From positions 93,186,001 through 93,250,000 of the forward strand of contig OZ024740.1 of the NCBI GenBank assembly GCA_964016885.1: 64,000 nucleotides of DNA, in the 5' to 3' direction. The number at the start of each line of letters is the position of its first letter. Positions within the stretch are counted from its first letter, which is position 1. Below, piece after piece: positions 1 through 57,502 of the stretch. The position numbers were made by a program, and so were the translations under genes. The notes beneath the pieces were generated by a model that searched no databases, was not told the DNA's origin, and saw nothing but the letters and a program-made list of their open reading frames with translations. The stretch is from Eledone cirrhosa (Eukaryota).

Positions 1-208
1 ACGTTCGAAAGTATATACTTTCCTTATGAAAATTAACGGCTGAGCAGCCTAATTTGCATATTGAGTGAGTTAAATCGGTCAGGCATACCGAAAACGATAA
101 GTTGAAAAAAATGAAAACGAAATTTCATTTCTCACTCTTAGTATGGCACTTACTTAAATGTAAGTATGTATACGTACATACATATATGTATACAGACGTA
201 CAGTAGCA

Positions 209-300
<92 letters not shown>

Positions 301-485
301 TATATACATATATATACACATATGCATACAGGTACACATACATATATGCACGCATCAGTTTAGCCGGCGTTTATTATAACGCCGGCCGCTTTGTTCGTTT
401 GTTTGTCAACAAAGCGAACAGCCTGAATTTATGCCATACGGTGTTAAGGCAACCACGTCACCTTTTTGTTCAACACTGACACAGG

Positions 486-530
486 AACGATGTACTAGTT
501 TCAAGCTTGTTAGCTATCATCAGCACCGTT
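486..530 (-). ncRNA. Minimal type I hammerhead ribozyme (array copy 1)
   Basis: Minus strand reads AACGGTG-CTGATGA-tAGCTaacaAGCTt-GAAA-CTAG-TA-CATCGTT: 7 bp stem I, 4 bp stem II, palindromic ACUAGU stem III, GUA cleavage site between 493 and 492. Confidence 0.9.
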
Positions 531-764
531 TACCCATCTGCCAGATAGTTGAACGTTCGAAAGTATATACTTTCCTTATGAAAATTAACGGCTGAGCAGC
601 CTAATTTGCATATTGAGTGAGTTAAATCGGTCAGGCATACCGAAAACGATAAGTTGAAAAAAATGAAAACGAAATTTCATTTCTCACTCTTAGTATGGCA
701 CTTACTTAAATGTAAGTATGTATGTATACGTACATACATATATGTATACAGACGTACAGTAGCA

Positions 765-852
<88 letters not shown>

Positions 853-1025
853 TATACACATATGCATACAGGTACACATACATATATGCACGCATCAGTT
901 TAGCCGGCGTTTATTATAACGCCGGCCGCTTTGTTCGTTTGTTTGTCAACAAAGCGAACAGCCTGAATTTATGCCATACGGTGTTAAGGCAACCACGTCA
1001 CCTTTTTGTTCAACACTGACACAGG

Positions 1026-1070
1026 AACGATGTACTAGTTTCAAGCTTGTTAGCTATCATCAGCACCGTT
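1026..1070 (-). ncRNA. Hammerhead ribozyme (array copy 2)
   Basis: Identical to 486-530. Confidence 0.9.
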
Positions 1071-1304
1071 TACCCATCTGCCAGATAGTTGAACGTTCGA
1101 AAGTATATACTTTCCTTATGAAAATTAACGGCTGAGCAGCCTAATTTGCATATTGAGTGAGTTAAATCGGTCAGGCATACCGAAAACGATAAGTTGAAAA
1201 AAATGAAAACGAAATTTCATTTCTCACTCTTAGTATGGCACTTACTTAAATGTAAGTATGTATGTATACGTACATACATATATGTATACAGACGTACAGT
1301 AGCA

Positions 1305-1386
<82 letters not shown>

Positions 1387-1559
1387 TATACACATATGCA
1401 TACAGGTACACATACATATATGCACGCATCAGTTTAGCCGGCGTTTATTATAACGCCGGCCGCTTTGTTCGTTTGTTTGTCAACAAAGCGAACAGCCTGA
1501 ATTTATGCCATACGGTGTTAAGGCAACCACGTCACCTTTTTGTTCAACACTAACACAGG

Positions 1560-1604
1560 AACGATGTACTAGTTTCAAGCTTGTTAGCTATCATCAGCAC
1601 CGTT
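1560..1604 (-). ncRNA. Hammerhead ribozyme (array copy 3)
   Basis: Identical to 486-530. Confidence 0.9.
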
Positions 1605-1838
1605 TACCCATCTGCCAGATAGTTGAAAGTTCGAAAGTATATACTTTCCTTATGAAAATTAACGGCTGAGCAGCCTAATTTGCATATTGAGTGAGTTAAA
1701 TCGGTCAGGCATACCGAAAACGATAAGTTGAAAAAAATGAAAACGAAATTTCATTTCTCACTCTTAGTATGGCACTTACTTAAAGGTAAGTATGTATGTA
1801 TACGTACATACATATATGTATACAGACGTACAGTAGCA

Positions 1839-1924
<86 letters not shown>

Positions 1925-2097
1925 TATACACATATGCATACAGGTACACATACATATATGCACGCATCAGTTTAGCCGGCGTTTATTATAACGCCGGCCG
2001 CTTTGTTCGTTTGTTTGTCAACAAAGCGAACAGCCTGAATTTATGCCATACGGTGTTAAGGCAACCACGTCACCTTTTTGTTCAACACTGACACAGG

Positions 2098-2142
2098 AAC
2101 GATGTACTAGTTTCAAGCTTGTTAGCTATCATCAGCACCGTT
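2098..2142 (-). ncRNA. Hammerhead ribozyme (array copy 4)
   Basis: Identical to 486-530. Confidence 0.9.
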
Positions 2143-2376
2143 TACCCATCTGCCAGATAGTTGAACGTTCGAAAGTATATACTTTCCTTATGAAAATTAA
2201 CGGCTGAGCAGCCTAATTTGCATATTGAGTGAGTTAAATCGGTCAGGCATACCGAAAACGATAAGTTGAAAAAAATGAAAACGAAATTTCATTTCTCACT
2301 CTTAGTATGGCACTTACTTAAATGTAAGTATGTATGTATACGTACATACATATATGTATACAGACGTACAGTAGCA

Positions 2377-2478
<102 letters not shown>

Positions 2479-2651
2479 TATACACATATGCATACAGGTA
2501 CACATACATATATGCACGCATCAGTTTAGCCGGCGTTTATTATAACGCCGGCCGCTTTGTTCGTTTGTTTGTCAACAAAGCGAACAGCCTGAATTTATGC
2601 CATACGGTGTTAAGGCAACCACGTCACCTTTTTGTTCAACACTAACACAGG

Positions 2652-2696
2652 AACGATGTACTAGTTTCAAGCTTGTTAGCTATCATCAGCACCGTT
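2652..2696 (-). ncRNA. Hammerhead ribozyme (array copy 5)
   Basis: Identical to 486-530. Confidence 0.9.
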
Positions 2697-2930
2697 TACC
2701 CATCTGCCAGATAGTTGAAAGTTCGAAAGTATATACTTTCCTTATGAAAATTAACGGCTGAGCAGCCTAATTTGCATATTGAGTGAGTTAAATCGGTCAG
2801 GCATACCGAAAACGATAAGTTGAAAAAAATGAAAACGAAATTTCATTTCTCACTCTTAGTATGGCACTTACTTAAAGGTAAGTATGTATGTATACGTACA
2901 TACATATATGTATACAGACGTACAGTAGCA

Positions 2931-3020
<90 letters not shown>

Positions 3021-3193
3021 TATACACATATGGATACAGGTACACATATATATATGCACGCATCAGTTTAGCCGGCGTTTATTATAACGCCGGCCGCTTT
3101 GTTCGTTTGTTTGTCAACAAAGCGAACAGCCTGAATTTATGCCATACGGTGTTAAGGCAACCACGTCACCTTTTTGTTCAACACTAACACAGG

Positions 3194-3238
3194 AACGATG
3201 TACTAGTTTCAAGCTTGTTAGCTATCATCAGCACCGTT
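3194..3238 (-). ncRNA. Hammerhead ribozyme (array copy 6)
   Basis: Identical to 486-530. Confidence 0.9.
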
Positions 3239-3472
3239 TACCCATCTGCCAGATAGTTGAACGTTCGAAAGTATATACTTTCCTTATGAAAATTAACGGC
3301 TGAGCAGCCTAATTTGCATATTGAGTGAGTTAAATCGGTCAGGCATACCGAAAACGATAAGTTGAAAAAAATGAAAACGAAATTTCATTTCTCACTCTTA
3401 GTATGGCACTTACTTAAATGTAAGTATGTATGTATACGTACATACATATATGTATACAGACGTACAGTAGCA

Positions 3473-3603
<131 letters not shown>

Positions 3604-3765
3604 GCATACAGGTACACATACATATATGCACGCATCAGTTTAGCCGGCGTTTATTATAACGCCGGCCGCTTTGTTCGTTTGTTTGTCAACAAAGCGAACA
3701 GCCTGAATTTATGCCATACGGTGTTAAGGCAACCACGTCACCTTTTTGTTCAACACTGACACAGG

Positions 3766-3810
3766 AACGATGTACTAGTTTCAAGCTTGTTAGCTATCAT
3801 CAGCACCGTT
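3766..3810 (-). ncRNA. Hammerhead ribozyme (array copy 7)
   Basis: Identical to 486-530. Confidence 0.9.
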
Positions 3811-4044
3811 TACCCATCTGCCAGATAGTTGAACGTTCGAAAGTATATACTTTCCTTATGAAAATTAACGGCTGAGCAGCCTAATTTGCATATTGAGTGA
3901 GTTAAATCGGTCAGGCATACCGAAAACGATAAGTTGAAAAAAATGAAAACGAAATTTCATTTCTCACTCTTAGTATGGCACTTACTTAAGTGTAAGTATG
4001 TATGTATACGTACATACATATATGTATACAGACGTACAGTAGCA

Positions 4045-4113
<69 letters not shown>

Positions 4114-4300
4114 TATATATACATATATATACACATATGCATACAGGTACACATACATATATGCACGCATCAGTTTAGCCGGCGTTTATTATAACGCCGG
4201 CCGCTTTGTTCGTTTGTTTGTCAACAAAGCGAACAGCCTGAATTTATGCCATACGGTGTTAAGGCAACCACGTCACCTTTTTGTTCAACACTGACACAGG

Positions 4301-4345
4301 AACGATGTACTAGTTTCGAGCTTGTTAGCTATCATCAGCACCGTT
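4301..4345 (-). ncRNA. Hammerhead ribozyme (array copy 8)
   Basis: As 486-530 with one substitution just before GAAA (AGCTc-GAAA). Confidence 0.88.
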
Positions 4346-4579
4346 TACCCATCTGCCAGATAGTTAAACGTTCTAAAGTATATACTTTCCTTATGAAAAT
4401 TAACGGCTGAGCAGCCTAATTTGCATATTGAGTGAGTTAAATCGGTCAGGCATACCGAAAGCGATAAGTTGAAAAAAATGAAAACGAAATTTCATTTCGC
4501 ACTCTTAGTATGGCACTTACTTAAGTGTAAGTATGTATGTATACGTACATACATATATGTATACAGACGTACAGTAGCA

Positions 4580-4651
<72 letters not shown>

Positions 4652-4824
4652 TATACACATATGCATACAGGTACACATACATATATGCACGCATCAGTTT
4701 AGCCGGCGTTTATTATAACGCCGGCCGCTTTGTTCGTTTGTTTGTCAACAAAGCGAACAGCCTGAATTTATGCCATACGGTTTTAAGGCAACCACGTCAC
4801 CTTTTTGTTCAACACTGACACAGG

Positions 4825-4869
4825 AACGATGTACTAGTTTCAAGCTTGTTAGCTATCATCAGCACCGTT
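4825..4869 (-). ncRNA. Hammerhead ribozyme (array copy 9)
   Basis: Identical to 486-530. Confidence 0.9.
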
Positions 4870-5103
4870 TACCCATCTGCCAGATAGTTGAACGTTCGAA
4901 AGTATATACTTTCCTTATGAAAATTAACGGCTGAGCAGCCTAATTTGCATGTTGAGTGAGTTAAATCGGTCAGGCATACCGAAAACGATAAGTTGAAAAA
5001 AATGAAAACGAAATTTCATTTCTCACTCTTAGTATGGCACTTACTTAAATGTAAGTATGTATGTATACGTACATACATATATGTATACAGACGTACAGTA
5101 GCA

Positions 5104-5205
<102 letters not shown>

Positions 5206-5378
5206 TATACACATATGCATACAGGTACACATACATATATGCACGCATCAGTTTAGCCGGCGTATATTATAACGCCGGCCGCTTTGTTCGTTTGTTTGTC
5301 AACAAAGCGAACAGCCTGAATGTATGCCATACGGTGTTAAGGCAACCACGTCACCTTTTTGTTCAACACTGACACAGG

Positions 5379-5423
5379 AACGATGTACTAGTTTCAAGCT
5401 TGTTAGCTATCATCAGCACCGTT
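5379..5423 (-). ncRNA. Hammerhead ribozyme (array copy 10)
   Basis: Identical to 486-530. Confidence 0.9.
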
Positions 5424-5657
5424 TACCCATCTGCCAGATAGTTGAACGTTCGAAAGTATATACTTTCCTTATGAAAATTAACGGCTGAGCAGCCTAATGT
5501 GCATATTGAGTGAGTAAAATCGGTCAGGCATACCGAAAACGATAAGTTGAAAAAAATGAAAACGAAATTTCATTTCTCACTCTTAGTATGGCACTTACTT
5601 AAATGTAAGTATGCATGTATACGTACATACATATATGTATACAGACGTACAGTAGCA

Positions 5658-5745
<88 letters not shown>

Positions 5746-5918
5746 TATACACATATGCATACAGGTACACATACATATGTGCACGCATCAGTTTAGCCGG
5801 CGTTTATTATAACGCCGGCCGCTTTGTTCGTTTGTTTGTCAACAAAGCGAACAGCCTGAATTTATGCCATACGGTGTTAAGGCAACCACGTCACCTTTTT
5901 GTTCAACACTGACACAGG

Positions 5919-5963
5919 AACGATGTACTTGTTTCAAGCTTGTTAGCTATCATCAGCACCGTT
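5919..5963 (-). ncRNA. Hammerhead ribozyme (array copy 11, stem III palindrome mutated)
   Basis: GAAACAAGTA instead of GAAACTAGTA. Overlaps the stop codon of the PLE ORF. Confidence 0.8.
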
Positions 5964-6192
5964 TACCCTTATTTATGCTATTATCGCTAGGTTTTAAGTT
6001 CCTGTTATTTATTCTATTAATATTTTGCGCTAAATTGTTGGTGGATGAGTAGGTTAGTTTTATAGTATGTCTATTGAAAATTGCGTGATACCTATGTGTT
6101 CTAGGGAAGCGATTATCGAGAGCTTTAAAAAATAGTTTATCAATGTAGGTTTTAATGTTTAGTGAGAAAGGGGGGGGGGGGGGGCAAACCAT
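5953..6192 (-). CDS. C-terminal continuation of the PLE RT ORF after a frameshift in a poly-C run; GIY-YIG endonuclease absent
   Basis: [43 protein letters not shown] matches the PLE post-RT region also seen at 15.4 kb and 62.6 kb. Ends at the TGA of the HHR core. Confidence 0.85.
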   Translation of the reverse strand: MVCPPPPPFSLNIKTYIDKLFFKALDNRFPRTHRYHAIFNRHTIKLTYSSTNNLAQNINRINNRNLKPSDNSINKGKRC

Positions 6193-7166
6193 ATTATATT
6201 CCTAGTTCTAATTCTTTTATGGCTTTTGGAATTATTGTAATGCTTTCTATTATAGTTGTTAAGGTTGTGGCCATAATTAAAATAGTTGTTATTTTGTTTA
6301 ATTTGTTTATCATTATCTATGTACATAATTTTATCACTATATCCTGCTCTAGCTAACGCTTCATTGTAATAATGGGCTTTTTCGTCGAAAATCTTTTTAT
6401 TAGATGAGATTCTAGTGATACGTGATTGAACAGAGTTTACTACAGTATTTTTAACAGATTTGGGGTGGTTAGAGTTAAAGCTGACATAGTTTAAGTTTTC
6501 ATTCAACTTGTGAAATGGATAGTGAAGACATGTGTTGAGATTTAATGTTATATCTAGGAAGTTGACTATTCTATGGCTATTCTCAATTTCTATTTTTAGA
6601 TTAAAATGATTAAAACATTGTGTAATTTGTTTTCTTTTTCTATTTAGTTCAGAGTTATTATTATCAATAAGTAAAAGCATGTCATCTCTATATAAACCTC
6701 CGGTAGTACCAGGTATTTTCCTATGCAGCGAATTGATTAAAAATAAGCCCACAAGGTCAGTTACCTGAGCTGAGTCGGATGATCCCATAGTAATGTCAAA
6801 ATTGTTATCTCTATCTGCTCGTGTCCATAGTTGGTCATTAAATTCTATCAATGTTTTCCTAGCCGATAATATAATGTGCATATCATTGCTAGTTATGTCT
6901 GTATGTTTGAATGCGTAATTTAGTGCCTTATTTAGTAGATTAGGGGTAATGGAAGAATAATAGTTATCAATATCAAGTTGAATAAACTTATTATTATTGT
7001 TATATTTAATTTGCTTAAACAACTCAACAACCTCACCAGTTCCCTTCCACAAGCTCAGGTTAGGTAAACAACTCAAGTTTTTAATTTGCTGTATCACCCT
7101 GTCAAGAAAGTTTTTGCTTAGTTTACCCAGGTCCGATTTTGATGGTGCAATCAATCTGACTGGCAA
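6159..7166 (-). CDS. Penelope-like element reverse transcriptase (Naiad-like), 5'-truncated
   Basis: 335 aa open frame with RT motifs [64 protein letters not shown] and IIWFAPP. Truncated upstream by (TA)n at ~7190. Confidence 0.93.
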
Positions 7167-7193
7167 GTCATTCTCGAAATTTCTCTATGTGTG

Positions 7194-7294
<101 letters not shown>

Positions 7295-7398
7295 AAGGTA
7301 ATCTGAGTTTTTCGAATATTAATAATAACATTCGATTTGTTTGCAAACAAATTTACCTTATTATTCCACAATGCATCAGGCAAAATTCAATACTCTCT

Positions 7399-15399: not shown

Positions 15400-16230
15400 T
15401 CAATCCACCCTTATAGTAATAGACTAGCAAAGTTTACGTGGTACAGCCCACCCTACTCTGCGGGCCTAAATACAAGCCTGGTCCGGACATTATTTAGGGC
15501 ACTACATAAATGCTTCCCGAGGGACCACTGATGCCACAAGATATTCAACAGACATACTGTGAAGCTCTTGTCTTCTACCACGCGCAACGTAGGCCAGCAC
15601 ATATCTGGCATCAATAGGAGTAGACTTAGAAACTACACACAACCAGCATATGGTAATATAGGCCCCCAGCAGAGTCATGTGGAGGGAAGGGATGGTGGAC
15701 CCGTTACCCACCCAAACAGACTCAGCGACGCCCTACCGGGCCCAGGGTCAGACCACCTTACACTACGCAAAGGGAACCCTCCGCAATAGGCACCTAGGGC
15801 TCGACCATCTCCTTCAACTACAGAACACCCACATTATGACCGCTTAGTAATGAATGCCTCGTGAATAACCTAGTATACGGATGTAGAGTAAAAAACCCCA
15901 ACTCTGAGCACATTTACATAGGAGCAACATCAACGAAGTTCAAAGACCGATGGTATAACCAACGCCATTCCTTTAGTAGGGAGGGCAGAAGGAAAAGTAC
16001 GGCTCTTTCCGAACTGATCTGGAAGCTGAAGCTGGACAGGACCCGTGCTCTCTGGCCAGGTCCAATATTAGCAAAGTGCCACCTGATAGAAGGCGAACTC
16101 GTATCTGCAACCAATGTCTGAGGGAGACCCTCGATATACTCAATGGTGGGAGCATCCTAATCAACCTCAGGACCGACTTATTTGGTACATGTAGACACCT
16201 CTGGGCCGGAACCTTCCTCAAGTTATATGG
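15400..16230 (+). pseudogene. Naiad-like PLE relic (post-RT region plus GIY-YIG endonuclease)
   Basis: FTWYSPPYS..HKIFNRHTVKL; PLSNECLVNNLVYGC..YIGATSTKFKDRWYNQRHSF..STALSELIWKLK; CNQCLRE..LINLRTDLFGTCRH; with stops and frameshifts. Confidence 0.85.
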
Positions 16231-20339: not shown

Positions 20340-23300
20340 GTGTTATGTGTGTGTGTGTATGTCATATTATGGTGTTGAATATTTTTGAATAAACATATTT
20401 TCCTTATTTACTCGCATTTGTTCTGTTGTATTGTTAGCGCAAAGGTAAAATGGGAAGACTTGGAATTTCGGTGTCTTATTACTTGCGCAAATGTCTAGAT
20501 GTGCACTTAGTGGTATCTGTCTCGTGGTTGGATCTCGTAATTGTTGGCGATGAACTGTCATTCTGTTTCTGAGTGTGAGTTTAGTTTGTCCTATATAAGC
20601 TTCATTGCATCCTTTATATTTAATGGCATAAACTAGATTTTTTGATGAGCAAGTGAAGTGATTTTTTACAGTAAAATTGTGTCCTGATTTAAATGTATAC
20701 CTGTTGCCTTCAATGAGGTGAGTGCAGGTTCCACAATTAGAGCGACCACATTTGTTGATACCTGGTTGTGGGTTTGTGGTAGGTAATTTGGCATTGGTAA
20801 TTTGGCAATGTTTTCAGTGATTTTGGTTGTCTTTTGCTTTCGATTATTTTGTGTGTTTCAAGGGCTTTTTTCATTCTTGGGTTTTGTTTTAGTAGTGGGA
20901 TGTTATTGTGAATAGTGTTGTAAGCTTCCGCATTTATTGGGTTGTGTGTTGAGATATATGATAGAATATTGGACGTACCTTGAATTTGTTTCTGTTTCCG
21001 TAATTCATCAATGCCTATTACTTTAGCCCTTTCTATTCCATTATTTATTAGTAATAGTGGGTACTCTCTCTCGAGTAGAATTTCCTTTAATTCTTGAAGT
21101 CTTTTATTTCGAGTTTCATAATTGGAGACAATTGTGCACATTCTTCTTGCTAGGTTAAAAGGAATGTTATTCTTCGTGTGCTTTGGATGGTTGGAGGTGA
21201 ATAACAGATATTGTTTGGAATCTGTTGGTTTGTAGTGTATGTCAGTTTCGATATGTGTGTCTTTTTTTAAGATTAAGATGTCCAGAAATGGGAGTTGATC
21301 TTGGCTGTATTACATTGTGAATTGGATGTGGTTATTGATGCCGTTTATTAAGTTTTTGAAATCCTTCAGTTCGTCGAGTGTGTGGGACCAATCATCCAAG
21401 TAGCGTTTCCAATTCTCTGATAAATATTTGTGGAAGTTTAATCCGTATTTTGATTTGGACTGTTCATATATCTGGACTTCTAAGTATGCTATGACTAAGT
21501 TGGCATAAGTTGGAGTGGCTTTTGTACCTATCGCAGTCCCCGATATTTGCTTGTAAGTATTGCCATCGAAATCAAAAAAGTTGTTCTGTAGGATGAATTT
21601 TAATCCCTCGGTGATGAAGCTTTTTTCTAATCTGTCAGATATCACATTGGGATATTTCTCTAGCCAGAATCCTATTGCTTCTAGTCCGTATTGGTGTGGG
21701 ATCGTTGTGTAGAGATTCACTACATCGAAAGACACAATAATAGTGTCGTTGTTGATATGTTTGGGGAGGTGGTTTAAGAGGGCCAGATCGTCTCTTACAA
21801 GGCTTGGTATGTGTTTCAGTATTGGTTTCAGTAGTATGTCTATAAAGTTGCTCAATCTGTGTGTTTTACATTGTGGGCCCGCTACAATTGGTCTTAATTT
21901 AAGGTATGTGTTGTATCGTGTGTTCACGCAGGCTGAGGTGGATTGTTTACAGGCATCGTTGATTATTTTACACTTGTGGATCTTCGGAAGTCCGTAAAGG
22001 TTGCTGGTTTTGTATTCAAAATTTGTTAAATAATCGCGTACCTTTTTAGTTAGGTCTTCCTGATATCGATAAATCAGTGTGTTTAATTTGGTCATTATTT
22101 TTGATTGCTGATCGTTTTTTACTCTTTCATAGTAATTAGTATTTTGTAAGAGAGAGAACATAGAACTTTTATATTTTGCAGCCTCCATAATGACAACAGT
22201 ACTTCCCTTGTCCGCTTCCTTAATTATAATGTCCGTATTGTTTTTTAGTTCATGGATAATCTCCCATTCCCTTCGACTTGTGTTGAGTCTGGGTTTAGGT
22301 ATGGGAAGGTAGATATATGGTCACACCATTTTTCCAGAACTCTGTTTTTACCTTTTGTTGGGTTGTAGCTACTTTTATTCCGTACAATTGATTCGTCGTT
22401 ATTCTCCTTGTCAAAGAATTACTCTGTGAGACGTAATTTTCTACAGAAGTGTGAGATATCGTCATTTATCTCGTTGGGGTTAGGGTATTGTAGTGTCGGT
22501 GTGAATTTCAGACCTTTGGAGATAATTTTTACTTGTTGGGAGAGAGGTTTGTATTTGAAATGTTAATTATTTTCGGTTTTTCAAAATCGGTTTGTGCCAC
22601 CGGGTATCGTGAGTCCTGTAGCCTTGGTCTAAAAAAATGATTTTTCTGGAATGTTTTTTCATTGGTATTATCATATCTAATGGTATTTCCCCTGTTGTTG
22701 TGTGGTCTTGTATAGAAGTTTCGGACGTATTGAGGTTCGGTTTGTTGATAGTCCAAGTTGTAGATTTGGTTCCTTTGTGTGGGTTGGGATCTACGGTTTT
22801 GGAACAGGCTCTGTGTGGGCAGGGGTCTACGGTTTTGGAATAGGTTTTGTGTGGGTTGTGATCTGCGGATCAGGTCCTGCCTTGTGTTCGGGGATCTTTG
22901 GTTTTTGTTAGTAGGGTTATAGTTTTGTCTATGGTTTCTGGGATTATCGTTATAGTTTTGCTGGGGGTATGTTGGACGTTTTGTTACTTTTTTTGTTATT
23001 TGTTGTGCATGTGGTGTGTGAGTTTTAGTTTGTTTTAAAAATGGGTTACCTGTATGTTGTTCATTTTTGAAGTCCATTTCGTAGTTGTTGAACCAGGTGG
23101 CGTTTTTTTCCCATCGCTGGAGGGATGTTAGTTCTTCATCCTCACAGTTTTCTTTCCAAAGTGTTAGGTTTTTTTTATAGAGTAGGCCTTCAGAGTGCTT
23201 TGAGATTTCTGTGTCCATCTGTTGGTTGAGTGACTTGAATTTTTCTTCGTTGGAGTTGGCTCTTCATCGCAACAGTTCTATTTCTGTTTTACATTTTTCC

Positions 23301-23750
23301 AATGCCATCTTTTCCCTAAGTCTTTGTTGGTATTCTGGTTCATTCGGGATGGGTTTTATTTGGAAATTTTTGGGGAGGATGATTGGGGTAGAGTTTAGCC
23401 ACTTTTCATATATGTCTGCCTTGCCATTATTTTTTAGGAGATTCCAAAGCGCGAATTTGTGGGCTGTGAGCTTTTGAGTCCATATGATGATTAGGGTGCT
23501 TTTCACTAGTGGACATCTCGTAGATTGGCTTCTAACGGTTGTTCCATTTTTGGAGCGTTGCTGTTTCAATGGTTTCGATTAGCTTATTTAATACTGGAGT
23601 AATATTCGTCTCTTGGGTATTTTCTGTTTCTTCGTGGGGTCTTTTTTTTATAGATGTGTATTTGGTCCACTTTGTTGGTCAAAATTGAGAGTTTAGAGGA
23701 AATCTCTTTGAGTTCATTTAATATGTCCTGGTTCAGTGAGTTGTTGTTTT
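20340..23750 (-). mobile_element. Near full-length Neptune-like Penelope element (N-terminal region, RT, Zn knuckle, GIY-YIG), frameshifted
   Basis: ORF pieces 23264-23569, 22529-23218, 21310-22188 (LYGLPKIHK, LRPIVAG, SFDVVNLYTTIP, SGTAIG, RYLDD), 20737-21141, and 20367-20750 (CGRSNCGTC, NLVYAI..EAYIGQT..RMTVH). Confidence 0.92.
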
Positions 23751-23753
23751 GTT

Positions 23754-24766
<1,013 letters not shown>

Positions 24767-28099: not shown

Positions 28100-29202
28100 A
28101 CTCATATTTTCTATTTAATTTTGGTTGTAATTCTTTTATGTTTATTGCCTCTGTGATTTGTCTAAACATTGCGTCTTTTCTGTGTGTAGATTCTATTTTT
28201 ATTTCTATGTTCTCTAATTTACCTTGTGTTCTATTTTAGCATGTTGGTAGAGTACAGATGATTCTTTACTATCTTGAAGGTCTTGCCAGTGTTCATTTAT
28301 CCGTTCCCCTACACTACGAGCTGTCTCACCTATGTACACTATATTTTTCTCTCTACATTGTCCTTCATTACATCTTATGCTATACACTACATTTCTAGTT
28401 TTACAGTTAATATGGGGGCTTATTTTACAGGTTATACATTTCTTATCTATACATGGGGGTCTTTGAAAAGGGTATGTCTTACTAATAAGTGTTTTTACGG
28501 AGGTACCTGGTTTTTCTACTATCTTAATATTGAGTTTATGTTTATCTTGGGCCCTTCTAAATGTGTAAGCTAATTCACCTCTAGGGGTTCTATCGATGAA
28601 CATTACACTCTGGTATTTATTGCTATCATACCATGAGTTTATTCTATTAGCCTTATTCCTAGTTATTTCTATTCTATTCCAAAACTTGTTCCTATACAAG
28701 GGGCAGGTCCGATGTATGTCATTATTTACCATTTTTTCCCATTTGGTTCTGGCTCCTCTATACACTCTGATTTTATCTCTCTGATTTTAACCAGAGAACT
28801 GCATACTGGGGATGAAGTGTTGTATGTGTCTCTCTAGTTCTTCGGGGTTGCACATGCGGGATACTTTTCTCATCACCCGTACCAAATCCGCAATCAGTAT
28901 GTTGATTTTGGTATGGTCCGAAACGGCCGAGATTCGGTGGATCAGATGTTTGGAAGTCATGGGTTTGGAATAATGGGAATGGAGGATTTGGTTTTGTTAT
29001 TAATGGTATCTAACCAGAGCTCTGTGTCTAGTACAGGTAATCGATGTTTGGGGTGTTTACTTGGGTAATCTATAGTAACTCTAATACTCTGGTGGATGGA
29101 GTAAGCTATTTGCTGGATGCTTTCCATTATTTTTATTTTCTCCAATGAAGTTGTCACCCCTTCTTTTCTGTCGTTTTTTATTTTGTTTTTATTTACTTCC
29201 AT
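28100..29202 (-). pseudogene. PLE fragment (RT thumb plus Zn knuckle and GIY-YIG endonuclease)
   Basis: IRVTIDYPS..RLPVLDTELW; CIDKKCITC..CKTRNVVYSIRC..VYIGETARSVGERINEH. Confidence 0.88.
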
Positions 29203-33745: not shown

Positions 33746-35711
33746 ATGGCTACTTCACCTCTGCAACAAGCAGCTGAAAGCCTTCCTCACAAATTAACAC
33801 CTCACACCGACACCACCATTGTAAATGTTACTAGGTTTGCCAACACAAAAAAAAATATAAGCAGTAGCAATATTTTAAATTTGCCTCAGGCAGACATTCA
33901 TTTCCCGCCATTACCAATGACTGCAGGTGTTAAACCCTCCACCACCACCACCACCACCACCGCGACAACAGAAACAAAAGAAGAAAAAAATAAATTAACT
34001 CGTGACGTCGAAATGAAATCAAGCAAAATGGACTCTTCCCCACCAAAGACGACTGACGTCAGCACCACCACATCTGAAAATAAAATTAATATTAACGATA
34101 GCAACAACAACAACAATGACATTATAAAACCGACCCTCAGTTTCGCCATCGTAGCAAAACAATTCGAAGCGTTCACGGTAACTCAAGAAGATTTAGAAAA
34201 TGCCAAACAAATGGTAAAGAAAGATGGGTACAGGGTCAGCCTCACCCCCCCCACCTAATAAAATGGAGCATCGGCGCCTGTGCACCGTGTCGTATAGAAC
34301 AATAAATGTAAAATCGCGCCGAGTGGAACGGGCATCCGAGTCCCAAATCCAAAAAGCTTTGGGACATGTGTGGGCAAGAAAAACCCACATCAGACGTGGG
34401 CAAAAGTATGGAACCTTGGATGTATTCTTTGAAACACCAGAGGAGGCTAGAGAACACTCCATGGCCCCATTAAAAAGTGACGACTTCACACTCGTCCCAA
34501 GCTATTGTGGCCAGAGACTCGTAAAGATCAGGGTGACCCATGTTCCACCGGCCATCGAAATTCCCTGGCTAATAGCGGCTGTCATCGCCGGCATCGAGGC
34601 CAACACGAAAATAATAACAATAGCAAAAGAAAAGCAGGAAAACTGGTCCGGATCTGGGATGGAGCTCCTGATCCAAGCGGACCAAAAAAGCATTGAGGAG
34701 ATCCCAGAGGTAATAGACCTCACTGACGGCAGCCACCTCACGGTAATTGTCGAGGGCAGAAGACCTAGGTGTGTCGTTTGTGGTGAAGGAACCCACCTAA
34801 GGGCTTTCTGCCCTCAGGCTAAAAGGTTGAGGCCACCTCTCCTACCCACCCCAGTGACACAACCATCAACACCACCAGTAGCAGAGATGGCAGCAACAAC
34901 TGTAGCAGCAACAACAGAAGCAACTATAACAGCAACAACCCCAGCAACAGTAGCAAAACCAACACCACTACCACCACCAGCAAAACCAACACCACCACCA
35001 CCCAACGCTTCAGAACTAGCACCAGCGCCTACACCATCCACCACACCACAACCAAAACTAACGGCTGTGGAGGATTTTCCACTCCCCGGCCTATCACAAC
35101 TGGAGACAGATTGTGACGACGAGGAGTGGGAAACGATATCTGGAAAAAAAAAAAGAAACCAAAAAACAAAAAATTCTCTTCCTTCCCCCTCCAAAAACAA
35201 AATACAGAGGGAAACAAATAAACTAAGAAACAAAAAAGTTAGGACAGATATGCCACCATCCACACCAGCATCACCAACCCCATCAACCCAAACACCAACA
35301 CCATCACCATCATTAACTCCAACACCACCATCACCTACACCACAAAAGTCACCAAAATGCGAAATAGAAACAAACCCACAACAAACGCAAACAAAACAAA
35401 ACAACCAAAACGATACACACTACACAGCATTAAATTTGAACAACAAACAATTATTACACTACATCCAACACAACACCAGCATCACAGAAAAAGACTACAC
35501 AACAACCCCAAAATTCACACCACCTCCACACATACAAATCACTCGCATCACACAGAAAACGTACATGACACTAAAACAAAAATTCCCCAAAGACATCGGA
35601 GACTTCCGACAAGCACTCTCCAGGAGGATTTATAAGGACATCCTTCCTGAGGAGGCCACAAGCAGTGAAAAGGATGGAAAAGCCGTCCTTCCCCTACGAG
35701 AAGTAAGGTAA
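33746..35711 (+). CDS. LINE ORF1 (gag-like, CCHC zinc knuckle), one frameshift near 34255
   Basis: ORFs 33746-34258 and 34224-35711; VEGRRPRCVVCGEGTHLRAFCP; Pro/Thr-rich linker. Confidence 0.85.
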
Positions 35712-35745
35712 GTGGTCTTTCCCATCTTTTCCACTCCTTTTCAAC

Positions 35746-38700
35746 ATGACCTCACTCAGAATAGGCAGCATAAATGCGCGTGGCTTGGGGTCGTCATGGA
35801 AGCAGGGCCACCTGCTCAACGACCTCAGGTCACTAAACATAGATGTAGTGGCCATCAGCGAGACCAGAATCTCCGAAGCACAGGCTTTCGCACCGATCTT
35901 CGGCGGCTACGATGTGTACGCATCTCCCAGCCGTCCGGGATCGGGGGGAGGAGTTGCTGTGCTTTTTCGGAGAGGTTTGGATCTTGCCATACGGGCCATC
36001 TTCCTGGACCCAGAGGGTAAGTTGGTGGTGCTGGACGTGACCAGCGGAGACGGGCAAGCTTTCAGGTTAGTGGCCGTCTATGCCCCGACAGGAGCAGGGC
36101 GGCCTGATTTCTTCCGGCGTCTGGAGACCTTTCTTGGAACGTCCCGCTCTTTAGTGTTAGTGGGCGACTGGAACGGGATCTTAGATGCACGCTGGGATTG
36201 TGTGGGATTAGTGGATAGGGAAGGAGGGTGCAAGAGTCTCACCAACCTGCTCAGACGTTTTGAACTGTCTGACAGGTACCGAATGGATTTCCCGAATGTA
36301 CCAATGTGGACTTGGACAAATCGCATAGGGTCATCCAGATCATATCTAGATAGAGTATTTTGTAGGGAAATAGATAGGTCTAGCATAGGCTGTCCATAAT
36401 TCAAGATAGTCAGCTACACGGACCACAAATTCGTGATCTGTGTGCTTGACTTAGATAGGCTTCATAGACAAGGACCCGTCTACTGGAAGATAAACGCGTT
36501 CTTACCAGCGCGCAAGGCCTACAGAGACCGGATTAGCGAACTAGCTAAGCGGGCGTTGACGGGGGCCATCGTCAACAACAAGCGGTGGTTTGCTCTGAAA
36601 AGAGCAATTAGAATAGAGTCCATTAGGTTTAGTAAGACTTTAGCAATAGAGAAAAATAGAGCAGAGGGAGAATTAGTTAGAAAATTAGATGAGGCGCTTA
36701 GCAAAGGCATCGCGACCGACGTACTTGCGGCGAAATTGGCCCTTGACCAATTCTTCAATGCAAAGCACGAAGGCTGCGTTGTCAGAGCTAGGGTGCGTGC
36801 TCTCAGACACGAGGGGACGAAAGCCGTTCAATGGGCCCGAGTGGCGGAGGCGCGTCGTGGCAACAAAGCCACGATCCGGTCTTTGGTGGACCACGACGGG
36901 CGCAGGCTACTCGATCCCGGGCAAATGTGTGAAGCTTTTCAGCGACACTTCGCTCAACTGTTCGGGGGCAGTGGCGGGCCGGATCGAGGGATGGACTTTA
37001 GTGTCTACCTCGACGGACTGCCGCGGCTTTCGGCCACTGAGGCGGAGTGTTGCGAAAAGCCGATAACAACCGCTGAAGTACGGGATGCAAGGACTAGTTG
37101 CACAAGGGGTAAATCGCCTGGTTTGGATGGTCTGCCCTATGAACTTTACGTACAAAATTTCAAACTTGTTCGGAGGCCTCTTGGCGGACGTCTACTGCAA
37201 CTGGCAACAGAACGGGAGAATTCCCAGCTCTGTGAGCCGAGGAGCGGTGGCGCTGCTGAGAAAGGATCCGAACAAGGGGGATAACATAGATAATTTTAGG
37301 TCCATAACTCTGCTAAACACAGAGTTCAAGATTTTGGCCAAGGTGCTAACAAAGAGGTTGGCGCTTGTCCTTGGTGGTCTGGTGGGAGAGGCACATGCAT
37401 GCGCCATTCCCGACAGATCCATCCACGACAACCTCCACCACATGCGATACATCGTAGAGAGGGTAGCTAAGGAACCTGGCACGGGTGGGTCTTTGATCAA
37501 TTTAGATCAGTCGAAAGCCTTCGATAGGGTCGACCATCGTTACCTAGCGGCAGTCCTGAGGGCGGCTGGCTTTGGGCCCGTCTTCAGAGGCTGGATCGCT
37601 GCCATGCACAGCGACATCTGCTCTGTAGTGAGAGTGAACGGTCACCTTTCGGAACCGTTCAACATCATGCGCTCGGTCCGCCAAGGATGTCCCCTCTCGT
37701 CCCTATTGTACGTATTGACTCTCGAGCCATTACTGCACAAACTGGAGACGTTGAGGGGGGTCCCGCGCGAACTAGGATGCGGAAGATCCGTGTCAGTATA
37801 TGCCGACGATGTCACCGTAGTGGTGTCGAACGCCAAACACATCGAGGCGATCGGCACTACACTAAGAGAATACGAAGCGGTGACAGGAGCAATGATCAAC
37901 CAGGAACAGTCAGTGGGCCTGCAGCTCGGCACCTGGAGAGGCAGGTCCGTGCCGTCCAACAGCGTCGTCGGGCGCTGGACGGACGGAGCGGTTAAATTGC
38001 TAGGGGTCTGGTTCGGTCCAGACCTCCAGACGGACAAAAACTGGGACGAGGTGACGAGCAGGGTGGCTTCTCTCACCCAGAAATGGGCCGAGAGGAAGCT
38101 ATCCCTGAAAGGTCGAGCGGGGGTGGCGAATGCGTACATCGCATCCGTCATCTACTAACGCCTGACCGTCGTACCTTGTCCTAAGCCCCGCCTGACTGCG
38201 CTGGAGCGTTTGCTCTTTCGCTTTTTGTGGAAGGGACGCGCTCCGATGGTCAGGCGGTCCATCTGCTGTCAACACCCGCTACGTGGAGGGCTGGGCATGC
38301 CGTGGCTGATGATGCGCAGACACCCGTTCAGGCTACGACATCTCCACCTCTTCCTCGACGGTGATCAGGTGTGGTCGCCGTTTGCGAGACACGTTTTTCC
38401 CCAGCTCGTCTCCTTGACGGAGCTGCAGTCCTGGGTCAAGCGAAGACCGAGAGGGAGCGCTTGGAGACTGGAATGTCTTGAGGCGCTCACAGCCCTCGAC
38501 CAATCGGGCAATGTGATCGGTGGAAACTCCACCTTGGCGTTCTATAGGGGATTAGTGGAGGGGAAGAGCGACGACGTACTTGGAGAAACTCTAGGCGTCG
38601 ACGAAAATCAACTAGCCAATCTCTTCGGAAGGACTTTCGGGCCGGGGCCTATGGACAACTTCCAGATATCCCTGGCCTGGCAGTGCTACCGAGGAGCTTT

Positions 38701-39166
38701 GCCAGTTCGGGATAAACTCTACAGGCATGGAGGTGCCGTCAGGCGGGCATGTCCGAGATGCGCGCAGGGCGACGAAACCGTCCTGCACGGACTCCTCCAG
38801 TGTCCGAGCATTGCTGACTTGTGGGTTTATGTCGAACACCTGCTGTCACGTGTAGGACGGATCCAGCTATCAGCTGAGTCCATCGTGAGGATTGCCCCGC
38901 CCCCTTCCTTTAGCCGGGAAGGGCAGGCAGTTTTTATCTGTCTGGTGGCCATGGCGAAAGAGATAGTATGGTGGACACGTTTGAAAGGGCTGAAGACGAG
39001 CACATACCTCTTCGGTGATGCCCTGATTCACTTTTTCAAATTTCATTTGAAAAGGAAAATCAGGGTAGAGAGGGAAGTGCTCTCTTCCCAGCATTTTGTT
39101 GAAAGATGGGTGAGAGAAGCAAGTATGGCCCGAATGAATGGGGCTTCTCTGAGTATGTGTCTGTAA
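35746..39166 (+). pseudogene. LINE ORF2 (APE endonuclease, RT, C-terminal Zn motif) with two stops and one frameshift
   Basis: SINARGL, AISET, LVGDWN, SYLDRVF, TDH; KSPGLDGLPYE, LDQSKAFDRVDH, VRQGCPLS, YADD; CPRC..ETVLH.LLQC. Stops at 36397 and 38156, frameshift ~37150. Confidence 0.93.
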
Positions 39167-40127: not shown

Positions 40128-40664
40128 ATGATGCTAGTAAAACTAGAATACCTCTGCGTTAAGAACATGAATGCCCACATCACCAACAGCCCAAAGAGCA
40201 ACACCCCACCAGGGTGCTCTTCCCATAAGCCCGAAGCTTGTCCCGTTCAACAGCAATGCAACACATCCGCTGTAGTTTGTGAAGCTGTGGTCACTTCCAA
40301 CCGACCAAATCAACCACAGGGGGTAAAATGCTATGTGGGTATGTTGGAGGGTCGATTTAAGGAACGCTTCCTGAACCACCAATCGACATTTAGGTACCCG
40401 GCCAGACATTCATCCACGAAACTCGCTAGCCCCGTATGGTCCCTCAGTGACTCATGTATAGACTTCTCCATTCAATGGAAAGTCATCACTAAGTCCATGC
40501 CATACGCAAGCGGCAATGTGTCATGTGGACTATGTATTGATGAACAAATAAATATTATAAAGTGATTACGCAATAGCGATTGCCTAAACACGAGAAATTA
40601 ATTCTTCACACTGTGTCCACACGTCTGGAAACACCACCTACTTAATTACAAGGCTCCGGATTAA
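40128..40664 (+). pseudogene. Naiad-like PLE GIY-YIG endonuclease fragment
   Basis: GCS.HKPEACP..C, CYVGMLEGRFKERFLNHQSTF, STKLASPVWSL, CGLCIDE, LNTRN..CPH. Confidence 0.85.
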
Positions 40665-40809
40665 ATTAAAACAACATCCTACTTTTCCTATCAACTAGAA
40701 AATTTCGGACTTTCGTCACACGCACGCAATTTAGTATTGCCCGTTTGAAGTGATCGTTTCTGCGCATGCGCGTTCGTACGGTTGTCCTTCCTGTTCCGTA
40801 TAACCATGT

Positions 40810-40859
40810 CCATTACGAGCTGACGATCCGCTAAGGTGAAACAATCGTTCTCGTTATGG
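40810..40859 (+). ncRNA. Type I hammerhead in the Naiad pLTR
   Basis: CCATTACGAG-CTGACGA-tCCgctaaGGt-GAAA-CAATCG-TT-CTCGTTATGG; 9 of 10 stem I pairs. Confidence 0.8.
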
Positions 40860-40960
40860 TGAACTATCTGTTGCGTAAACACTTCTACATAACTCGTGCC
40901 ATGGACAGAGTGCTCTACCATTACAATATTACCATCCAGTGTTCTACCACTATATATACG

Positions 40961-41107
<147 letters not shown>

Positions 41108-43569
41108 GCAATATTTTCATAGAGGCATACAAGAACATCTTTGTTATGTGTACACATTCTCGTATACTTTTCTACATGAATTTAACATTCTGTATATATG
41201 TCTCAATTGTTTATTTTGCAGCAAATTGTATTTGATCTTACCCAATTTTTTGGTAAATGAATTATGATCATGAAGCAGAAAGAAGAGATTCAGGCGTTTA
41301 TGTATAAATGAAATAATACTTATAGATTTACACGTATTATTCTTTATCTTCGACAAAGTCGAAATAATTTACATGTGATATACGTTGTCTGAGTTATGCA
41401 TAAATAATGTTGAAATCATAACAAGTTAGTAAAACAAGTCGAAGTAATTTACATGTGATATGTGTTGTCTAAGATATGCAAAAATAATGTTGAAATCATA
41501 ACAAACTAGTAAAATATATCTAACACGATTGCAAACATGAATAACACTTTCATTTAACAAGTGTAACGATAGATGTTTACGTTACGTTATTATTGTCAAT
41601 ATACAAGGAAGAACATGTGTAGATAAATATATTCAAAGAAAGTCGAGACACATTTATAAACAAATAAACACCTTCAAAATGGTTAAATTATGTTTTACTA
41701 TTCCGTGTTGATTGTTTTAGTTCTTCTGGGATCTTAATCTTTTAATTTTTTTCAAACTTCACGAATAACCATGCAAGAAAATCATTCGCATATCAGTAAA
41801 TCACATTAGGCATCTGATATTATTAGCCATTACCGTGGTAAACAGTCAAGACAAATCTAAACATTTCAAAATTATCAATCCAGATTCTGGTTGCATATCT
41901 CTTGCTATTTGGTTGAATATTTGGCTAGCATAAGGTAAAATCACGTATATCAAATGTGAGGCGCAAATACTTTTGATACAGTGTTATCAATATCCTCCCA
42001 AATTAATCACTAACATTTACATCATACCTAAGGCATCAAAATATGCATAGATACAAATACATTTATTTCGCTGCGTGAAATCTTTGAAATAGTACTATAT
42101 ATGTTGCTCGTTTCGGTTTTACCACCTGGCATTATTATGATTTTTAATTACTTCATTTATTTGTATTAATTACAGTGCTTTGTGTGTTTTGTAAAGTCGT
42201 TTCTCTAATTCTCTAGTGTCATCTTCAAAAGTGCGTTAGATGTTGATTAAATAAATTAGGAAACTGCTGACAAAGCTGTTTATGGATATTTATCTCACTT
42301 TGGAATATTACAGAACTACAAAATGTTTGATATCTAATTTTTATTCACAAGGCATTATAGAAAATCATGTCAACCTCTAGTTATTAATGCCTCCCTAACA
42401 CCCATGTTCTGTAGCTTTCTGAAAATAGAGAACACATGAAGCGACCTTTGAATGTGGGCTATACATAAATTTCTAACTAGATCATATGTTTTCACTATCA
42501 TAGTTGATAACGAAGTTATCTAAATATAATTATAAGTTAATAAATATACAATGTATTATTAAATTTCAAAAGTCAACAATCTCGGATATTTCCTCAAAAT
42601 GAATCGTATGATAGAAATATTTAGACAATATAAACAGTGACGATCCACGAGGAATAGTTTTTTTAGTATCAAAAGGTAACACAAACACGTGTTATATTCA
42701 ACTCACTTTAAAATATTATCTATGGTATTTGCTGCGATAAAAGGACACAGGCATTTCAGATATCCTCGACGTTGCCGGCAATTGTTATGTGAGGCTGAAA
42801 CAAATTTGAGACAATAATTCGTACGATGATTTGTTTGCAAATGACTTCAATATCTAGAACGTGTCATGTAGTTGAAATGTATCCTGTATTATTTAAACAC
42901 AGCCTCTTCATATAATCGTTCTTAGGGACATATAATTCGTTTTAGATCAGCTGGTGTTGTGGTTTCTAAGAATACAGTCCTTATAGATAATGGGGAATTA
43001 CTATAATGAGAGCGTATCGATGTCAACAATTCATAAATAAATGTAAGGGTAAGTTATACACATTAACTTTACGCGAGAGGAAGCCAACATGTTCAAATCT
43101 GAATATGTTTTCATGTCGCTATATGATGTAAGTGAAATATGAATTGCTCTGAACATTTTTTAACTTAAACATTCCTGATGAGTGCGTTATATATCGTCTG
43201 CCTTTACAAACGAAAAAAAATCCTCACATGAGAACCACCATCACATTGGGTATATGGAAGAGGTGTTTCGAAATAGATCAGGCATTAGTGGTGCACACAT
43301 CAATCTGGATTGACCACCGTTACTTAGATGTTGTCCTTCAGGCACCTGGTTTCGGCATGTCTACGAGACTGGATCCCCACGTTATTTTGTGGCATATATT
43401 CGGTGGCGAAACTAATCGGCCGCTTATCGGAACATGTTCTTATCTAAAAGGCTCTTCATGAATGTTTCTGTAGCATTGTTCTGTGTATAGATAACACATA
43501 TATATTTCTGCTCTCTTTATGATTGTACCTACATACATATACACGCCCACACATATTCAAACATCCCCG

Positions 43570-43612
<43 letters not shown>

Positions 43613-44769
43613 TATATATATATAAATATACATATATATAAATATATATATATATAAATATATATATAGTAATAATAATAAATGTGAAGACTAAAATCGA
43701 AAGAGGTCTCGATAAAGATAAATATATATCAAATATATAAGAACCGTAGTGCAAATATTTATGAAATTTTAATCTGTTATTTTAATAAATATATTTATAT
43801 ATATATATACATATATATATATAGTTATGTAATAAACAACATGAGATAACTATTTCATTTACCAAAGGTTTCAGGAAGACAGACGAACTTGACACATACA
43901 TCTGCCTTCAATAATCAGAAGGAATGTTATTTTTAATGGAAGTAAGATTTGGATTTCAAAATAGAGTCTAGGATGAATGAAAGCGAGGCTGGAATAAAAT
44001 AATGGACATATTGCATAGGGAAAAAATAAAAAAAATGTATATCTAAATATACAAACACATATACAAGCACAACCTCATGCATATACATTCACACATAAGC
44101 ATATGTGCGCCTACATGCAAATACAAACACACACACATATACATTCGTTCCTACACTGACACATGCCCACACACGGACATACACGTACACAAAATTACGC
44201 ACAAATATACATACACTCTCATCTACATACATACGCATCTATATATATCTTCTTCTTCTTCTTCTTCTTCTTCTTTTTCTTCTTCTTCTTCTTCTTCTTC
44301 TTCTTCTTCTTCTTCTTCTTCTTCTTTGTCTTCTTCTTCTTCTTCTTCTTCTTCTTCTTCTTCTGACATTCCTCCACGAAACTCGCTAGCCACTTATGGT
44401 CCCTCAAGGACTCATGTATAGACTACTCTATTCAATGGAAATCCATCACTAAGTCCATGCCATACGCAAGCGGCAATCCGTCATGTGGACTATGTATTGA
44501 TGAACAAATAAATATTCTAAAATGATTACGCAATAGTGATTGCCTAAACACGTAAAATTAATTCTTCACACTGTGTCCACACGTCTGGAAACACCTCTTA
44601 CTTAATTACAAAGCTCCGGATTGAATTACAACAACATCCTAATTTTCTTATCAACTAGAAACTTTCGGACTTTCGCCTCTCGCACGCAATTTAGTATTGC
44701 CCGTTTGAAGTGATCCTTTTTGCGCATGCGCGTTCGTACGGTTCTCCTTCCTGTTCCGTATAACCATGT

Positions 44770-44819
44770 CCATTACGAACTGACGATCCGCTAAGGTGAA
44801 ACACTCGTTCTCGTTATGG
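44770..44819 (+). ncRNA. Hammerhead, duplicated copy of 40810-40859
   Basis: Same motif, offset 3960 bp. Confidence 0.75.
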
Positions 44820-44936
44820 TGAACTATCTGTTGCGTAAACAATTCTACATAACTCGTCCCATGGACTGAGTGCTCTACCATTACAATATTACCTTCCAGT
44901 GTTCTACCACTACACTATATATACGTATATATATAC

Positions 44937-45101
<165 letters not shown>

Positions 45102-47561: not shown

Positions 47562-47631
<70 letters not shown>

Positions 47632-47739
47632 ATAATAATAAATTTGAAGACTAACATCCAAAGAGGGCTAGATAAAGATAAATATATATCAAATATATAA
47701 GAACCGTAGTTCAAATATTTATGAAAATTTAATCTGTTA

Positions 47740-47793
<54 letters not shown>

Positions 47794-48996
47794 TGTAATA
47801 TACAGCATGAGATAATTATTTCATTTACCAAAGGTTTCAGGAAGACAGACGAGCTTAACACATACATCTGCCTTCAATAATCAGAAGGAATGTTATTAAC
47901 ATGGAAGTGAGATTTGGATTTCAAAATAGAGTCTAGGATGCATGAAAGCGAGGCTGGAATAAAATAATGGACATAATGTATAGGGAAAAAAAAATGTATA
48001 TGTAAATATACAAACACATATACAAGCACAACCTCATGCATATACATTCACACATAAGCATATGTGCGCCTACATGCAAATACAAACACACACATACACA
48101 TGCGTTCCTACGCTGACACATGCCCACACACGGACATACACGTACACACATTTACGCACAAATATACGTACATTCTCATCTACATACATACGCATATATA
48201 TCTTCTTCTTCTTCTTCTTCTTCTTCTTCTTCTTCTTCTTCTTCTTCTTCTTCTTCGTCTTCTCCTCCCTTTCATATGCCCCTTCCTCCTCCTCCCCCTC
48301 CTCATCCTCCTCATCTCCCTCCTCTGCTTGTCTGATGTCGGCGCTACACAATCTATCAAGTAACTTTACTCCCTAACCCTTCCGAGGAAACCATTTTCGG
48401 CGACATTTGGTCGCGATTGTGTTCTTTCAGCCATTGCACAAGATCACTGCCAGATATAAAGCTTTCACACCTACCTCCCTTCCGATTACTAATGCTGAAG
48501 CTGGCACATCAGTGCAGCAGCTCCTGATATTGTTGCACTTAATCCAGCCTCCTGTTCCCTACACACGTGAACATGGCCACGAGTTACCTGACATTAACTC
48601 TCTGATTCAGTGGAACACCATTACATCGAAGCTATTGATTGCAAGTCAGAGATCACCTCCAGTCGAGTTAAATAACACCATGTCGTCTGTAAATTCCCAC
48701 CAACTGCTTTTACAGGAGGTGAAAGTACGTACCATTTAGAAAGTCCACACCACCAACATTGAATTGTTTCGATTAAGCACCATTTATCTGAACCCAAATA
48801 TTTGAGCATTCGTAGAGAAATTAGAGCAGCAAGAATCTAACCAATGATGCTAGTAAAACTAGGATACCCCTGCGTTAAGACAATGAAGGCCCACATCACC
48901 AAAAGCCCAAAGAGCAACACCCCACCAGGGTGCTCTTGCCATAGGCCCGAAGCTTGTCCCCTTCTTGTCCCCTTCTTCTTTCTGTTATTATTATTC

Positions 48997-52554: not shown

Positions 52555-52556
<2 letters not shown>
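51884..52556 (+). mobile_element. Solo 1.1-unit copy (613 bp period, ~60 bp terminal redundancy) of the 617 bp family, inserted in (TA)n
   Basis: 51884-51941 repeats at 52497-52556; colinear with the reverse complement of the 53071 unit but diverged. Confidence 0.9.

Positions 52557-52598
<42 letters not shown>

Positions 52599-53032: not shown

Positions 53033-53070
<38 letters not shown>

Positions 53071-53077
<7 letters not shown>

Positions 53078-56760: not shown

Positions 56761-56789
<29 letters not shown>

Positions 56790-56798
<9 letters not shown>

Positions 56799-57463: not shown

Positions 57464-57502
<39 letters not shown>

Follow-up and report, generated by a model that had tools for sequence, protein, structure and literature searches.

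A decayed, apparently Hydra-clade reverse transcriptase fragment beside a predicted non-LTR retrozyme array in Eledone cirrhosa

Described relatives and the locus

Penelope-like elements (PLEs) of the Hydra clade are EN+ elements with a C-terminal endonuclease (EN) and, according to the sections of PMC8557442 used here, are characterised by RWK and DKT motifs, the absence of an IFD (an insert of about 20 extra amino acids between motifs A and B of the reverse transcriptase, RT), a CxCX5C linker and a GIY-YIG domain that does not contain CCHH. They have one hammerhead near the 3' end, and (TA)n is their usual insertion target (section 11 and File S1 of the same paper). Naiad PLEs share this target and are described in the same sections by an N-terminal EN, a DKA motif, usually an IFD and no canonical hammerhead, with some Naiads being without the IFD. 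A third group, the EN-deficient PLEs (Athena, Coprina, PLE-X and MjPLE01), carries an RT without EN beside hammerheads. Non-LTR retrozymes, in turn, are presented in the portions of PMC7229834 and 10.64898/2026.07.22.740005 drawn on here as tandem arrays of low-GC units that have no ORF and whose type I hammerhead has a short palindromic stem III, for which PLEs are proposed, but not directly shown, to be the helper in animals. Retrozymes are further argued to originate from pLTRs, the sequence link being to Xenopus pLTRs, with other organisms left unexamined by that study's own account (10.64898/2026.07.22.740005).

The locus described here lies in Eledone cirrhosa (GCA_964016885.1, contig OZ024740.1), in a window of 64,000 nt that comprises the whole stretch of DNA analysed (93,186,001-93,250,000, forward strand). 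The initial annotation saw in it a stop-free, Naiad-like PLE RT fused directly to a ribozyme array. This feature is real in the assembly but mislabelled, as a Hydra fragment that has decayed stands next to a retrozyme array, and both belong to known kinds. Compared with the Hydra elements in the literature cited above, the junction copy is without the N-terminal 190-200 aa and the entire EN, and where they have one hammerhead it terminates in a hammerhead array of several units. Its likeness to the EN-deficient PLEs is confined to this single copy, and it differs from them in three respects: family copies extend into the EN linker, telomeric repeats are missing from the window and the copy itself is decayed. 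The array, for its part, sets itself apart from the retrozymes in the cited portions by an internal (TA)n in each unit, a Hydra-like hammerhead and an RT-coding piece that is joined to it directly.

The reverse transcriptase fragment and its family

The RT copy lies on the minus strand, with its larger part at 6185-7190 (motif 1 through YRDD and the thumb, 5' end missing) and the C-terminal thumb/linker part at 5969-6169. In between, a run of 15 G on the plus strand (6170-6184; poly-C on the coding strand) shifts the frame, which agrees with the homopolymer frameshift proposed initially. The two frames annotated as 335 aa and about 75 aa are also present, namely as 341 aa from stop to stop (7184-6159), bounded upstream by a stop codon that adjoins (TA)49, and as 71 codons after the shift (6168-5956), which terminate in KGKRC*. 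The RT that they encode is, however, incomplete: compared with the homologs, it is short of about 190-200 residues at the N-terminus, the RWK/DKT region is gone, the first Met is aa 102 (nt 6881) and comes after motif A (aa 71), and W55L hits a nearly invariant Trp (W in 46 of 47 long homologs). The stop codon at 5955-5953 is indeed the TGA of the first hammerhead, where it forms part of the CTGATGA core, and array DNA encodes the last four residues and the stop of the fused frame. There is no sign that this overlap of stop and ribozyme core is more than a coincidence. The lack of stops, although confirmed, is within chance as well (P(no stop) = 0.53 with 13 random substitutions). No functional RT can result from the fused frame, so a mobilising enzyme would derive from intact EN+ copies elsewhere.

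That this copy has no endonuclease holds true, since the EN profile matches nothing in 1-7300 on either strand. Pfam does not recognise the RT of the junction copy, and it sees Hydra ENs weakly (two of six, E 0.002-0.012). In the protein alignment, which contains no small deletion in the RT copy, the join falls immediately before the CxC linker, close to the position that had been suggested from the onset of the CxC region.

On the basis of its sequence, we assign the RT to the Hydra clade and not to Naiad. The nearest proteins found in protein searches are 29-49% identical, with no relative closer than about 49%, one of those at 47% bearing the name of Octopus sinensis; the C-terminal RT piece alone, used as a protein query, gave no matches. 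Among the 58 homologs with at least 150 aa upstream, DKT/S is found in 56 and an RWK-like motif in 41, and none shows an N-terminal GIY..YIG pattern. Towards the C-terminus, 88 homologs reach the end of the thumb, and the EN profile matches all 67 of these that have a tail of at least 100 aa as well as nine of the 21 with shorter tails, the rest of which stop early; this count is partly circular because the profile was built from 49 of the same proteins. The spacing between motifs A and B is 58 aa in the RT, the mode of the homologs (56-59 in 89 of 101), and by this comparison with homologs, not with Naiad references, the IFD is absent. In a quick tree, the RT falls together with six unnamed homologs (SH-aLRT 99).

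Named Hydra references such as Hydra-1_Obim, as given in the sections of PMC8557442 used here, were compared with the RT by eye only, and their motifs are alike (RLI.P.KS, FD..MG..D.A, GLYRDD and WF.P.FS). Besides the absent IFD-sized insert and the homologs with RWK and DKT, the likeness to the clade extends to the target, with the 5' junction of the RT fragment at (TA)49 (7194-7291), and to the CxC linker, which appears as CNCR at the break in family contigs and together with a C-terminal GIY-YIG in the nearest homologs. The (TA)n target is shared with Naiads, and of the traits that distinguish them in the cited sections the N-terminal EN, the DKA motif and the IFD do not fit here; the hammerhead next to the RT may be that of the retrozyme, but the same-clade 3' ends at 40820 and 44780 have one as well. 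The label Naiad-like was thus wrong, the layout, with a C-terminal EN, being that of Hydra in the RT and in its neighbours of the same clade within the window.

These neighbours are four Hydra-clade EN fragments on the plus strand (15421-16228, 40137-40951, 44370-44916 and 62245-63261), two of which end in the order EN, hammerhead (40820 and 44780) and (TA)n. A 3.9-kb tandem duplication with 93% identity (40405-44313 and 44365-48266) includes a Hydra 3' end.

Other copies of the family were sought in four of 12 public runs, cited here as X1, X3, X5 and X10, with matches taken over 5760-7190. The RT family is multicopy in the public contigs. In X1, the summed contig depth, which is not a copy number, is about 3-9 thousand at the 5' end; it climbs to 78 thousand around position 6000, and the hammerhead has about 1.07 million. 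Three contigs in X1 and three in X3 depart from the window sequence at 5969, and past this point the X3 consensus reads NIQVNKCNCR in frame, i.e. the CxC linker that precedes the Hydra EN, so that the junction copy ends six codons before the CNCR motif of other copies; one X3 contig departs at 5970 with a different continuation. Since other copies run in frame into the linker at the exact break, the family, which was followed as far as CNCR, is very likely EN+. The G run is eight letters shorter (G7, in frame) over the entire depth in X3 (111/111) and X5 (32/32), in 97 of 374 reads in X10, and at a depth of only 823 out of 41,504 in X1.

The search for the same junction in other copies returned no listed record: no piece bridges 5968/5969 among the 24 of 2824 pieces and the 24 of 663 loose-end rows listed. 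In X10, what precedes the hammerhead in the reads is the ordinary upstream sequence of the satellite (5,825 and 5,508 reads), and the satellite has two subfamilies, about equally abundant, that differ immediately upstream of the hammerhead (5967-5968). Many window letters are missing from all four runs, and the junction locus is therefore probably unrepresented in them. Metagenome scans gave 424 matches to the RT pattern, none confirmed as a relative, and no match to the hammerhead pattern.

We are confident that the RT copy is dead and belongs to a Hydra family that is likely EN+, given its 5' truncation, the lost Trp, the 12:1 ratio of private changes and the frameshift from G7 to G15. Its private changes amount to 13 (12 non-synonymous, one synonymous), called at a set threshold and a lower bound, with 35 RT rows listed out of 299 rows in all. 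They are consistent with neutral decay, under which 20% synonymous changes are expected (p 0.49), and they differ from the variable changes within the family, of which 10 of 22 are synonymous (Fisher p 0.027), one row among the latter giving a spurious stop because neighbouring changes are not visible. The divergence of the RT is 13/1201 or 1.1%, again a lower bound, three long X3 contigs differ at 7 of 556 letters, and the junction unit of the array differs from the array consensus at 5 of 447 (1.1%). RT and array hence appear to be about equally old at about 1.1%, although the RT, its value being a lower bound, could be older.

The hammerhead array and its relatives

The array occupies 1-5968 on the minus strand and consists of at least 11 tandem units of 524-572 nt with 32% GC; it runs off the left end, unit 11 being cut by the window edge. 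Every unit contains one (TA)n in its interior and one type I hammerhead, whose stem III is 2 bp long, and judged by pattern all 11 show the tandem arrangement, type I hammerhead, low GC and length (150-1000 nt) of retrozymes. By these features, we classify the array as a non-LTR retrozyme, a known kind of element, with predicted self-cleavage. In the first hammerhead (5919-5963), a 7-bp stem I (5963-5957 pairing with 5925-5919) is followed by the core at 5956-5950, a stem II closed by a U-U pair and the 2-bp stem III, and cleavage is predicted after 5926. Loop 3 is AA in the junction unit only, versus a palindromic TA in the other units (5930), and this non-palindromic loop would be predicted to weaken dimeric cleavage there. 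Counted from the array start at 5968, stem I lies 5 nt and the predicted cleavage site 43 nt further on, which bears out the initial statement that the join is not at the cleavage site. At the gathering threshold, Rfam has no match in the window; HH9 is weak for the first hammerhead (E 0.95) and the next unit (E 0.11), both far below gathering, and the folding z-scores of the hammerhead regions are unremarkable (-0.3 and -0.4).

Variants common to units two apart suggest that the array grew later in place, and the divergence from the consensus is 0.9% in units 1-4 and 0.3% in units 5-11 (p 0.006). Inverted joints of the unit, which the cited sections of PMC8557442 treat as PLE-type structures, make up 13 of the 15 listed read joints. 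An apparent hot spot of 5' ends at 5968 (six of the 15 listed joints, one more at 5967) was set aside as a likely edge effect, since the compared stretch stops matching the satellite there and six other listed joints end at 5910-5957.

Of the 26 Hydra rows in File S2 (PMC8557442), counted by eye in the portion used, 14 show the U-U closing form (core-U...U-GAAA). It is also present in both Hydra 3' ends of the window (40820 and 44780) and missing at 27865 behind a non-Hydra EN, so that within this set it is a putative Hydra-like form. By profile search, no EN-coding remnant is found in the array unit, and LSKCH in the unit, considered as a C-terminal remnant of EN, receives no support from the EN profile. 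Between the unit and the other Hydra 3' ends of the window there is no clear similarity, the best score of 8 comparisons being reached by 1 of 100 shuffles.

A related retrozyme, diverged to 72-83% identity, lies at 23755-24732 on the minus strand and has an inverted segment, TA repeats at both ends and a mutated stem III. It represents an independent insertion with no Hydra RT attached, and its ends fall inside the 5' half of the unit, as with a circular template. Immediately downstream of it, and oriented alike, is an unrelated PLE, a decayed, near-full-length Neptune-like and not Naiad element at 20367-23750 (minus strand) in which GLKFTP, DKG, a Cx4CxxC linker and GIY-YIG were identified by eye.

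The window holds several further elements. At 28214-28786 (minus strand), a PLE 3' part with GIY-YIG, its clade judged from motifs by eye, is followed by the hammerhead-like core at 27865, which has a G-C closing pair, and at 56704 (plus strand) a lone hammerhead of the U-U form stands just before (TA)n, with direct and inverted repeats next to it (56772-58115). A second tandem array, of a 617-bp unit in about 4.6 copies with 99% identity (53063-55928), has no detectable CTGANGA core and is adjoined by an inverted relative of 83% identity (51883-52583). Finally, a LINE-type element occupies 34218-39166 (plus strand); the frames of its AP endonuclease, RT and zf-RVT are broken, and there is a weak MBD match near its start.

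Origin of the junction

The RT/array junction (5968-5969, minus strand) is blunt, the donors share no bases, and its sequence is rich in AT without being (TA)n. The two parts were likely joined in a single event. The reading that we tentatively prefer, at somewhat less than an even chance, is a template jump during one insertion, by which a truncated Hydra copy became joined to the retrozyme array. The Hydra endonuclease would have primed at a TA target, and the Hydra RT, while copying multimeric or circular retrozyme RNA, would have jumped to a broken Hydra mRNA at 5968/5969. The chimeric cDNA would then have entered (TA)n with its 5' stop near 7190, and the array would have expanded in place later. 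A template switch was one of the two options raised in the initial annotation, and it is slightly favoured due to the blunt join, the same orientation of both parts and their matching ages; the Hydra-like hammerhead in the array and the PLE-type inverted joints (both in the reads and at 23755-24732) point the same way. On the other hand, none of the listed records bridges 5968/5969, and a broken template would be required for the RT to jump, without homology, into the interior of an mRNA. Ligation of RNAs at ribozyme ends was rejected, as the join is 43 nt away from the cleavage site.

Almost as good a fit, and a serious possibility, is a nested insertion or a deletion linked to an insertion. 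Here, the Hydra copy would have been first and the retrozyme would have entered it later, either in the AT-rich linker, in which case the EN half would lie beyond the array, or in the (TA)n tail, with EN and 3' UTR being lost. The window is crowded with PLE and LINE fragments and has 74 TA runs, the related retrozyme borders at 23750 on the Neptune-like PLE, which is unrelated and runs in the same direction, and a PLE within another retroelement without target duplication is reported in the part of PMC3846280 used here. Moreover, matching ages and a common TA target are equally expected if two active families became nested, and the divergence of the RT is a lower bound only. Against this stand the target, which is not (TA)n although the related copy has TA on both sides, the indistinguishable ages of RT and array, and the join itself, which has no microhomology; the absence of any small deletion in the RT alignment argues against a later large deletion.

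We consider it improbable that the array unit is the 3' UTR/pLTR of the Hydra family itself, in which case the locus would be an internally deleted copy with an amplified 3' end, the linker being connected to a site shortly upstream of the copy's own hammerhead. The layout of the unit (about 230 nt, hammerhead, about 170 nt, TA) does resemble Hydra 3' ends in the material of PMC8557442 used here, the depth of X1 contigs climbs toward the 3' end, and the pLTR origin of retrozymes has been argued for (10.64898/2026.07.22.740005, in the portion cited above). However, the unit has no EN-coding remnant, and the ends of the related copy lie inside its 5' half, as for a circular template. A chimera created by the assembly where a long tandem array ends, with which the lack of a listed record spanning the join would agree, is very unlikely: the private RT letters of the window are also missing from the runs, so that the locus itself is probably unrepresented, the junction unit has private changes of its own (5930 and 5779), and divergence drops from the edge inwards, as at a real array edge.

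The second option of the initial annotation, a true endonuclease-less PLE lineage with priming at DNA ends and an expanded 3' repeat, is largely refuted, for although the junction copy has no EN and EN loss within EN+ clades is known from the cited sections of PMC8557442, other copies proceed into the CxC linker, the copy has no start codon before motif A, a shifted frame and neutral-looking private changes, the junction occurs elsewhere in no listed record, and the 64 kb contain no tandem pair of five telomere motifs, so that the proposed connection to telomerase and DNA ends does not apply.

The more striking idea of a telomerase-like element without EN hence does not hold, and a single junction in a transposon-crowded region cannot prove the identity of a helper. 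If the elements were nested, their adjacency would tell little about which RT moves the retrozyme. It is nevertheless conceivable, if still rather less than probable, that the junction is the fossil of a Hydra-clade RT that jumped from retrozyme RNA to its own mRNA and that it thereby names the helper Hydra family. In the titles and abstracts of the literature searched, whose limited coverage makes this weak evidence, we found no description of a fusion between a Hydra RT and a retrozyme. Taken together, the young chimera of RT and retrozyme, its Hydra-like hammerhead and the common TA target suggest one testable pair. If this reading is true, the junction would provide a physical link between a very abundant, TA-targeting retrozyme and its helper, beyond the co-occurrence and pLTR similarity on which the papers used here rely.
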